Below, one piece after another: positions 4,048 through 4,730 of a stretch of 54,713 nucleotides of DNA. Source of the stretch: a virus (Duplodnaviria; Caudoviricetes); IMG/VR virus record IMGVR_UViG_3300032117_000037, positions 1-54,713 of that record; one strand, 5' to 3'. The notes beneath the pieces were generated by a model, which did not search any database, was not told the origin of the DNA, and saw only the letters and a list, made by a program, of their open reading frames with translations. The first letter of the stretch is position 1. Each line of letters starts with the position of its first letter. The position numbers and the translations under genes were made by a program.

Positions 4048-4535
4048 AATACAAAGCTGACTATGATCGTGGATTTAATGCAGAAGAACGCTTCGCTGAA
4101 GCTTACTTAAATCAAATAATTTGGGCAACCAAAGAACAGGATATGTTCGAGCATTGGGATGTTCAAGGTCTATTTATTGATAACTACTATAAGTTTGATG
4201 TAAAGGCTTTAAAGAAAATTAATCGCTATGATGATTCATTCCAAGATGATATGGCTTGGGTAGAAGGTGTTAACGTCAATGGTGAAAAAGGATGGTTGCA
4301 AGGAAAAGCTGATTATATTGTCTTTGAACGTAACCACGAATGGCTTGTAGTTGAACGTCAGGGACTATTCGACTGGACAACGCACAAGCTTATTAAAAAC
4401 GGATATAAACAAGGTAAAGAGCTTTATAGTGTCTATCAAAGAAAAGGTCGTCAAGACAAACTTACCTTAATTAAATACTCAGATATACCTCAAGAGCATA
4501 TTATTCGTTTAAATAAAAAAAGGGAGACATTTTAA
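4035..4535 (+). CDS. PD-(D/E)xK-like nuclease-fold protein
   Basis: G..AE..F, HWD, FDVKA, WVE and GWLQGKADYI pattern. Confidence 0.55.
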   Translation: MLSIKYKADYDRGFNAEERFAEAYLNQIIWATKEQDMFEHWDVQGLFIDNYYKFDVKALKKINRYDDSFQDDMAWVEGVNVNGEKGWLQGKADYIVFERNHEWLVVERQGLFDWTTHKLIKNGYKQGKELYSVYQRKGRQDKLTLIKYSDIPQEHIIRLNKKRETF

Positions 4536-4546
4536 GCCTCCCTTTC
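4515..4546 (-). terminator. intrinsic terminator downstream of pqqA
   Basis: Minus strand GAAAGGGAGGC-loop-GTCTCCC followed by a T-run. Confidence 0.65.
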
Positions 4547-4597
4547 GGTACCATAACCCCATGCATAAACTAGTTTATCGGGACGAGTATTATACCA

Positions 4598-4669
4598 TTA
4601 TTTATTCATTACGTACATAGTTACTTCAAAGCCAAAACGCATTTCTGTTGCAGTAGGTTTATTCCACAT
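4598..4669 (-). CDS. pqqA: pyrroloquinoline quinone precursor peptide PqqA (23 aa)
   Basis: Manual translation [23 protein letters not shown]: MW-x-KP start, R-F-G-F-E-V-T-M-Y with the ExxxY core; strong RBS GAAAGGAG 7 nt upstream; below the ORF-track length cutoff. Confidence 0.93.
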   Translation of the reverse strand: [23 protein letters not shown]

Positions 4670-4730
4670 AGTAGTTCTCCTTTCAAGTACAAATGTATCC
4701 TAAAATAGAACAATTTAAATCAAGAAAACC

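Follow-up and report, generated by a model that had tools for sequence, protein, structure and literature searches.

The window analysed here is the whole of IMG/VR virus record IMGVR_UViG_3300032117_000037 (54,713 bases, linear), and its subject is pqqA, a minus-strand open reading frame (ORF) at 4598..4669 (stop included) that encodes a 23-aa precursor peptide of pyrroloquinoline quinone (PQQ). The ATG (4669..4667) is preceded, at a distance of 7 nt, by the Shine-Dalgarno (SD) sequence GAAAGGAG (4677..4684, minus). Behind the ORF lies an intrinsic terminator-like element (4508..4546, minus), in which a stem-loop (4546..4518) of 11 pairs, 5 of them G-C, with a 7-nt loop is followed by a T-run and the T-rich tail TTTATTTAAA; the part of the hairpin before the T-run folds with −14.1 kcal/mol (RNAfold). 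Both neighbours lie on the plus strand, which makes the pqqA ORF an antisense island. The divergent neighbour encodes a RusA-like Holliday-junction resolvase (4731..5084; phrog_34, E 3.4e-33), whose start is separated from that of pqqA by a spacer of 61 nt (4670..4730) with no consensus promoter detected. The convergent neighbour (4035..4535), whose 3′ end is overlapped by the pqqA terminator, encodes a 166-aa protein of unassigned function (blastp cluster 86) that had no match in PHROG or NCBIfam; its homologues occur near pqqA in five other IMG/VR loci, as judged by blastp clustering. An earlier note on this DNA had described a minus-strand 23-aa ORF with a ribosome-binding site and a terminator, set between two plus-strand genes over 4515-4684, a span that runs from the T-rich tail of the terminator through the ribosome-binding site, and that description is borne out.

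The ORF encodes a PqqA-family peptide on a genuine tailed-phage genome, and both parts of this statement are confirmed. Against the Pfam PqqA model (PF08042), the peptide scores 37.7 bits (cut-off 21.1, E 1.9e-9, profile positions 1-19 of 19), and against NCBIfam TIGR02107 it scores 39 bits (cut-off 20, E 4.8e-10, positions 1-21 of 21), about twice the curated cut-offs. In a six-frame profile scan of the whole record, pqqA was the sole match over the cut-off, with none in 14 control genomes. The pattern W..KP(7)G.EVT.Y occurred a single time in the window and in none of 100 shuffles. The peptide contains the W.KP leader and the E-x-x-x-Y motif, present as E15-V-T-M-Y19, of which E15 and Y19 are the cross-link residues. 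With 23 aa and its own translation start behind GAAAGGAG, it is a short ribosomal peptide in the size range of the PqqA family (about 20-40 aa).

CheckV estimates the completeness of the record at 84%, so that about a sixth of the genome may be missing; its GC content is 0.33-0.42, and no tRNA was detected in the window. The window encodes the large and small terminase subunits (TerL and TerS), a portal protein, a methyltransferase, an ejection protein, a large virion protein, a tail-fibre-like protein, a metallophosphoesterase and a GH19 lysin-like protein. Its major head protein (40252..41154) belongs to a blastp cluster (c11) whose representative, from another locus, matches phrog_371. This protein is 62-72% identical to those of the Pelagibacter phages HTVC023P and HTVC027P, Planktothrix phage Pag-Yong1 and Synechococcus phage MinM2, and 55-56% identical to those of roseophages CRP-901/902. 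The window phage is a freshwater podophage-like virus with the HTVC023P/HTVC027P capsid type.

Viral genes flank pqqA on both sides, with RusA and the metallophosphoesterase on one side and ejection and structural genes on the other. The stretch was held by 20 sequencing runs dated 2012-2023, all of them lake or freshwater DNA metagenomes, and 13 were flagged as possible sources. Unitig depths to the left and right of pqqA in four lake runs were 109.6/110.9, 210.1/201.3, 35.9/40 and 13.2/11.1; this agreement within each run argues for one genome rather than a chimeric join at pqqA. In the same four runs, depth in the bin 4605-4671 rose from several-fold to more than 100-fold above the flanks, unitigs broke at 4622-4634, and several different loose ends over pqqA started at 4597 and at 4645-4653. 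Given the depth excess and the unitig breaks, pqqA is a repeat common to many lake genomes, and copies with a nucleotide identity of at least 90% are carried there by many further genomes, both of hosts and of other phages. Among the pieces listed from the four DNA runs, none bridges pqqA with at least 31 letters on each side, and contiguity across the gene rests on the IMG/VR contig together with the co-varying flank depths.

Viral pqqA sequences, collected from IMG/VR with two degenerate DNA patterns that together yielded at least 178 loci, allowed selection on the peptide to be estimated from the codons that the patterns leave free, using uncorrected Nei-Gojobori proportions of synonymous (pS) and replacement (pN) differences. 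At codons 9-12, 14 and 18, pS was 0.93 and pN 0.07 (loci of the first pattern, 94 distinct sequences); at codons 20-23, pS was 0.85 and pN 0.19 (23-aa viral sequences, 138 distinct among 156). The resulting pN/pS is 0.08-0.23, and the codons used for Arg11 illustrate the same tendency (CGT 83, AGA 47 and CGC 22). These values show strong purifying selection on the pqqA peptide and not on a DNA or RNA element. As is expected of an auxiliary gene, phage pqqA has a close host homologue and is under purifying selection in phages.

Cultured phages carry the gene as well. A tblastn search of the window peptide against 50,697 phage records returned 12 records at E<=1, of which 10 remained at E<=1e-4. 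Nine of these ten are cultured phages of Methylophilales/Methylophilaceae (Venkman, P19250A, MEP301, MEP401, MEP402 and four Melnitz records), and the tenth is the uncultured spring phage MW202481; the two weak matches are Acinetobacter phage MD-2021a contigs (E 0.2). The earlier note had proposed a PqqA profile search and a tblastn search of viral sequences as checks on its identification, and both turned out in its favour. E15 and Y19 are kept in all ten strong matches, which were not selected for these residues. TIGR02107 was passed by all ten peptides scored against it, from six phage records and four divergent IMG/VR contigs (34-45.4 bits; 34-40.9 for the six phages). At the DNA level, P19250A, a cultured LD28 phage, has an unannotated stretch that shares 94.8% identity with window positions 4591-4648 (megablast of the first 25 kb of the window).

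In all nine cultured-phage records pqqA is intact, and it is either unannotated or lies under a hypothetical coding sequence (CDS); none of the P19250A, Venkman, MEP301, MEP401/402 and Melnitz records annotates it on the right strand. Five phage records have no annotated feature beneath the match. In Melnitz EXVC044M (MZ577097.1, about 76134-76208) and in MW202481.1 (about 2119-2190), a 'hypothetical protein' CDS lies on the strand opposite to the intact pqqA, and these masking CDSs are probably gene-caller artefacts. A gene of 72 nt is shorter than gene callers usually accept, which we offer as the reason why pqqA has gone unnoticed. In Melnitz, pqqA is located between a small ORF and a tRNA-Leu gene. 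No tblastn match was obtained in the capsid relatives of the window phage that have other hosts (HTVC023P, HTVC027P, Pag-Yong1, MinM2, Pra-JY27, CRP-901/902 and DSL-LC04). Given that these capsid relatives on SAR11, roseobacters and cyanobacteria are without a match, the presence of pqqA follows host metabolism and not phage lineage.

Among the IMG/VR loci listed, an intact pqqA ORF of 23-25 aa was present in 178 of 178 (169 recognized by filter and 9 by inspection). An SD-like 4-mer was found at −16 to −4 in 171 of the 177 listed loci, against 5.5% at random positions of the same loci, and a hairpin with a T-run within 90 nt after the gene in 70 of 167, a count made without a control. The neighbours are phage genes, such as those for an exonuclease, a nucleotide kinase, an endolysin-like protein, the major head protein, a RegA-like translational repressor and Hsp20. 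When grouped by at least three shared protein clusters, the viral loci formed 28 groups, including a T4-like one (RegA - pqqA - Hsp20) and one large mosaic group. In about 20 IMG/VR relatives with the head module of the window, pqqA follows co-directionally right after the major head gene (c18>c23>c19>c11>[A>]). The corresponding post-head site of the window (39893-40251, minus) holds a terminator and an unrelated 85-aa ORF (39917..40174), and pqqA lies 35 kb away. The position after the head gene in about 20 relatives and elsewhere in the window indicates that the gene has been relocated within this phage lineage. Seven IMG/VR contigs encode other PqqA types (e.g. ...IRLGFEVTMYFKNR and ...DLRFGFEVTLYISNR), unlike the Methylophilaceae form, and such peptides may mark phages of other PQQ-using bacteria.

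The bacterial counterpart was assembled from one genome per species with a degenerate DNA pattern for the 10-residue core, which gave at least 120 loci. The titled loci among the 120 listed are mostly from Methylophilaceae (Methylotenera, Methylophilus, Methylopumilus, Methylobacillus and Methylovorus), and the remaining ones come from Methylophaga and a few Methylococcaceae. Two 23-aa forms of the Methylophilaceae type occur 43 and 19 times among these 120 loci, including in Ca. Methylopumilus universalis, and the Methylophaga-type PqqA ends in ...ICNR. The window peptide differs from the form found 19 times at two residues, the variable positions N3 and T6, and the P19250A peptide has the very sequence of the commonest host form. 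With window positions 4590-4690 (101 bases) as query, between one and seven DNA matches of up to 92-93% identity were found in 121 of 121 genomes of the Ca. Methylopumilus universalis family, and these matches take in the ribosome-binding region. At several bacterial loci, e.g. in Methylophilus rhizosphaerae, a second pqqA copy lies only a few kb from the first, in some cases on the other strand, and some pqqA-carrying contigs labelled as metagenome-assembled genomes may in fact be of phage or mobile origin.

The peptide type is thus supported as that of Methylophilaceae, in agreement with the earlier note. Given that the stretch was found in lake and freshwater runs only, a freshwater Methylophilaceae host (e.g. 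Methylopumilus) is favoured over marine OM43, and the phage most likely infects a member of this family. Of the Methylopumilus/OM43-like host suggested earlier, the Methylopumilus-like part is the favoured one.

The remainder of the PQQ pathway is not encoded alongside the viral gene. A six-frame search of the record, with its estimated completeness of 84%, gave no match at E<=1 to PqqB, PqqD, PqqE, the PqqC/TENA family or a PQQ_2 dehydrogenase, as the earlier note had anticipated in stating that the window holds no other pqq genes. The linkage to pqqBCDE that is usual in many bacteria, and is not a defining feature in Methylophilaceae, is accordingly lacking in the window. In the all-against-all blastp comparison, with one representative confirmed for each cluster, PqqB, PqqC, PqqE and PqqD clusters were present at 29, 26, 25 and 19 of the 120 listed bacterial loci and at none of the 178 listed viral loci. 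The PqqC hidden Markov model matched none of 50 whole viral records and five of five bacterial genomes. Each of five Methylophilaceae genomes has one PqqC, one over-cut-off PqqE and 3-7 copies of pqqA; in a 1.3-Mb Methylopumilus genome, pqqA lies at 416, 457 and 1186 kb, and pqqC and pqqE at 577-579 kb. The available text of Beck et al. 2014 likewise reports that pqqBCDEFG are single and pqqA is present in 3-12 copies (PMC4109929).

These observations make it probable, in our judgement, that the gene is a functional phage pqqA that adds precursor to the host PqqBCDE pathway, i.e. an auxiliary metabolic gene. A Glu and a Tyr of PqqA are converted by PqqE (with PqqD), PqqB and PqqC to PQQ, the cofactor of periplasmic methanol dehydrogenases. 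One PqqA peptide is consumed per PQQ molecule, according to the relevant passages of two papers (PMC7678222, PMC9851590). The phage would bring only this consumable precursor, and the host would bring PqqD/E, PqqB and PqqC. While host transcription fails, phage pqqA would keep up or raise the supply of precursor, and sustained PQQ synthesis would in turn keep methanol dehydrogenase supplied, so that methanol oxidation could yield energy during infection. The single pqqBCDE set and the several scattered pqqA copies in the host family suggest that precursor dosage is the adjustable step. We infer the expression of pqqA, its mode of transcription, the processing of the peptide by host enzymes and the benefit to the phage.

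Several points weigh against this proposal. The 20 runs that hold the stretch are DNA metagenomes, none being recorded as RNA, and no pqqA promoter was found, either by a sigma-70 scan or by upstream conservation. The proposal also presupposes that host PqqD/PqqE would accept the phage peptide and that PqqA would be limiting in the infected cell. As a cofactor, PQQ is reused, and it is assumed that a single infection cycle calls for more of it. The host itself is deduced from one 72-nt gene and the habitat. As regards the wider distribution, tblastn reveals carriers only, and pqqA-free Methylophilales phage records are invisible to it, which leaves the statement 'all cultured methylophages' unproven; taxonomy names further phages (MEP431-434, Venkman EXVC038S, HIM624-A, phiMB624-A, MG-MTP1 and RSA-MFP1). 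Both IMG/VR patterns require the E and the Y (one of them the whole 10-residue core), and conservation of these residues in that set holds by construction. The PqqC search of whole records covered 50 of the 178 viral records, most of which are fragments.

The alternative that survives best leaves the function of pqqA unchanged and concerns its transcription. The gene would then be the last cistron of the leftward late (structural) transcript, reached through rusA in antisense and ended at the hairpin 4546..4518. A minus-strand structural block extends from about 49.8 kb down to 5071, and the pqqA hairpin is the first strong minus-strand terminator-like site past 5071, a weak one (5279..5262) being located inside the last late gene. 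The sigma-70 consensus scan found no promoter upstream of pqqA, including the 61-nt spacer, and its two promoter-like sites, at 4273 and 4213, both lie downstream. No promoter-like conserved upstream position was found in 166 viral or 114 bacterial pqqA loci either; the sole conserved upstream positions in both sets are the purine-rich SD block (aAGGAA in viral and aGGGaaa in bacterial loci) and the bases right before the ATG. In about 20 related loci pqqA follows the major head gene in the same direction, which also fits a late transcript. Across the 178 listed viral loci and the window, pqqA has the same direction as both neighbours in 60 cases, is opposite to both in 58, is mixed in 40 and lies at a contig end in 21. 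The 60 co-directional cases out of 179 speak for a late cistron. On the other side, the 58 opposite cases suggest that in many loci pqqA has signals of its own, a transcript reading through would need to pass 354 nt of a convergent gene, and the promoter scan addressed the sigma-70 consensus type only. As modes of transcription, read-through from the late block ending at 5071 and a unit of its own are equally possible; as a complete account of the locus, we regard the late-cistron version as possible but the less favoured of the two. The earlier note had called pqqA a stand-alone transcription unit, of which the ribosome-binding site and the terminator hairpin are present and a promoter of its own was not found.

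It is unlikely that the phage peptide is a decoy, which would occupy host PqqD/PqqE or be made into a non-PQQ product, so that cofactor synthesis in the host would be lowered or redirected. A solitary precursor could act by competition, and a 2024 survey, in the text available, describes a PqqA-annotated RiPP (peptide made by ribosomes and modified after translation) family that is co-expressed with defence systems (PMC11118758). However, the phage peptides are near-identical to those of the host, with the window peptide two residues off and that of P19250A matching the commonest host form, and in a decoy one would expect changes at the reactive residues, which are kept in all ten strong tblastn matches.

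Less likely still is that the phage has a radical S-adenosylmethionine (SAM)/SPASM enzyme of its own that acts on PqqA, which would provide a self-contained first step of PQQ synthesis or lead to a new product. The window does encode a radical SAM/SPASM peptide-maturase-like protein (18518..19870) that exceeds the TIGR04085 cut-off (32.7 bits against 27), and Coutinho et al. 2020 speculated, in the part of their text available, that radical SAM proteins of viruses have a role in PQQ synthesis (PMC7678222). Against this, a six-frame search of the window with the PqqE model (TIGR02109) returned nothing at E<=1, and a PqqD-like domain was not found either. As a candidate phage PqqE, the protein encoded at 18518..19870 was rejected, with PqqE absent from its 25 best NCBIfam matches and only 20% identity (BLASTP E 0.10) to Methylophilaceae PqqE. 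The gene lies 14 kb from pqqA, beside its own likely substrates, and shares no blastp cluster with genes of other pqqA loci.

These likely substrates are three tandem paralogous minus-strand ORFs of 89-94 aa (21885..22154, 21590..21874 and 21299..21580). All three have an N-terminus of the type MSTQLTNGS.VFGD.TTLS, and their tails are rich in Cys (CNCRCNC, CNCQCNC and CNCNCYCNC). They come after the tail-fibre-like gene and are followed by a 255-aa ORF, a weak 2-oxoglutarate-Fe(II)-oxygenase-like gene and the radical SAM/SPASM gene. The region 18035-22154 (minus) resembles a phage cassette, either a RiPP-like one or one for cross-linked fibre proteins.

Least credible of all is that pqqA is a passenger without selection on the peptide (host scrap, a site of recombination or attachment, or an element acting at the RNA level) or a repeat assembly artefact: the sharing of the short sequence among genomes of the same lakes, the depth excess with its unitig breaks and the extension of the host match over the SD region would fit it, but synonymous sites are near saturation and replacement sites are not, the ORF and the SD block are kept in nearly all listed viral loci, the gene is present in the lytic T4-like Melnitz, flank depths co-vary in four runs, and no integrase was found among the part of the window proteins scanned. 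Chimeric assembly, host contamination and an attachment site were each considered as sources of pqqA and rejected on gene clusters, codon selection and flank depths.

Returning to the auxiliary metabolic gene, a broader proposal can be made, which we hold tentatively and rate somewhat short of even. In it, pqqA would be a near-universal, host-diagnostic gene of Methylophilaceae phages (those of OM43, LD28 and relatives), acquired or kept independently by unrelated lineages (T4-like, Zobellviridae, P19250A/Venkman-like and HTVC023P-like), for the reason that the precursor would be the most labile link in gaining energy from methanol after host transcription has ceased. Methanol and other one-carbon (C1) compounds have major consumers in the Methylophilaceae (OM43 in coastal seas and LD28/Methylopumilus in lakes), whose methanol dehydrogenases need PQQ. 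A phage gene supplying the precursor would mean that viruses sustain or tune C1 oxidation during infection, and, if the broader proposal is true, the supply of a cofactor precursor is a new class of viral metabolic takeover that can be tested in existing cultured pairs. The 23-aa ORF could then also serve as a host-prediction marker for methylotroph phages; since it tracks host physiology rather than phage lineage, it may help to assign hosts to uncultured phages. The reference methylophage genomes examined do not have it annotated; it is detectable with a simple pattern or profile on six-frame translations.

A phage pqqA as such is not new, and the earlier note overstated its novelty: the gene was published in 2020 with the same proposed role (PMC7678222, as far as the available text goes). 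There, Coutinho et al. (Microbiome 8:163) described PqqA in the T4-like viral population VP_266 from Lake Baikal, with a predicted Methylophilaceae host (PMC7678222, same text). A 2026 reservoir study concerned with phosphorus, in the portion available, counts pqqA, pqqD and pqqE among the genes that viruses encode (PMC13188868). The terms 'pqq' and 'pyrroloquinoline' are absent from the main text of the papers on Venkman (PMC8163748), MEP301 (PMC8024684) and MEP401/402 (PMC10580990), and the main text of the Melnitz paper (PMC9004378) contains no pqqA and mentions PQQ only as a medium supplement. A full-text literature search found no report on the breadth of pqqA among methylotroph phages. 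What is new here is that a hidden pqqA is widespread and conserved in methylotroph phages.

Among known systems, the closest are the chromosomal 'orphan' pqqA copies of Methylophilaceae (Ca. Methylopumilus universalis, Methylotenera and Methylophilus), which share with the window gene its length, its core, a nucleotide identity of 82-93% and a purine-rich SD block at the same distance from the ATG. Many of these host copies are unlinked to pqqBCDE, as is the phage copy; unlike them, the window gene is phage-borne, is flanked by phage genes and differs from the nearest host form at N3 and T6. VP_266 resembles the window in that a low-GC freshwater virus encodes PqqA, for which its authors proposed an auxiliary role in methanol oxidation; it is T4-like and carries a methanol dehydrogenase gene, whereas the window is an approximately 55-kb contig with an HTVC023P-type capsid and no PQQ_2 dehydrogenase, a comparison made by description and not by sequence (PMC7678222, available text). 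P19250A, Venkman, MEP301, MEP401/402 and Melnitz likewise encode a 23-24 aa PqqA that passes TIGR02107, and in Venkman and MEP301 it is antisense to both neighbours, as in the window. These cultured methylophages differ from the window phage in genome type (a siphovirus-like group, Zobellviridae and Kyanoviridae) and insertion site, and the OM43 phages are marine. Cyanophage psbA, which encodes D1, is the textbook auxiliary metabolic gene, and its product is a full membrane protein for which expression and fitness data exist. Phage pqqA would share its logic, in that the phage gives one fast-consumed part of a host energy system and the host gives the rest; it differs in being a 23-aa consumable precursor, known here from its sequence.

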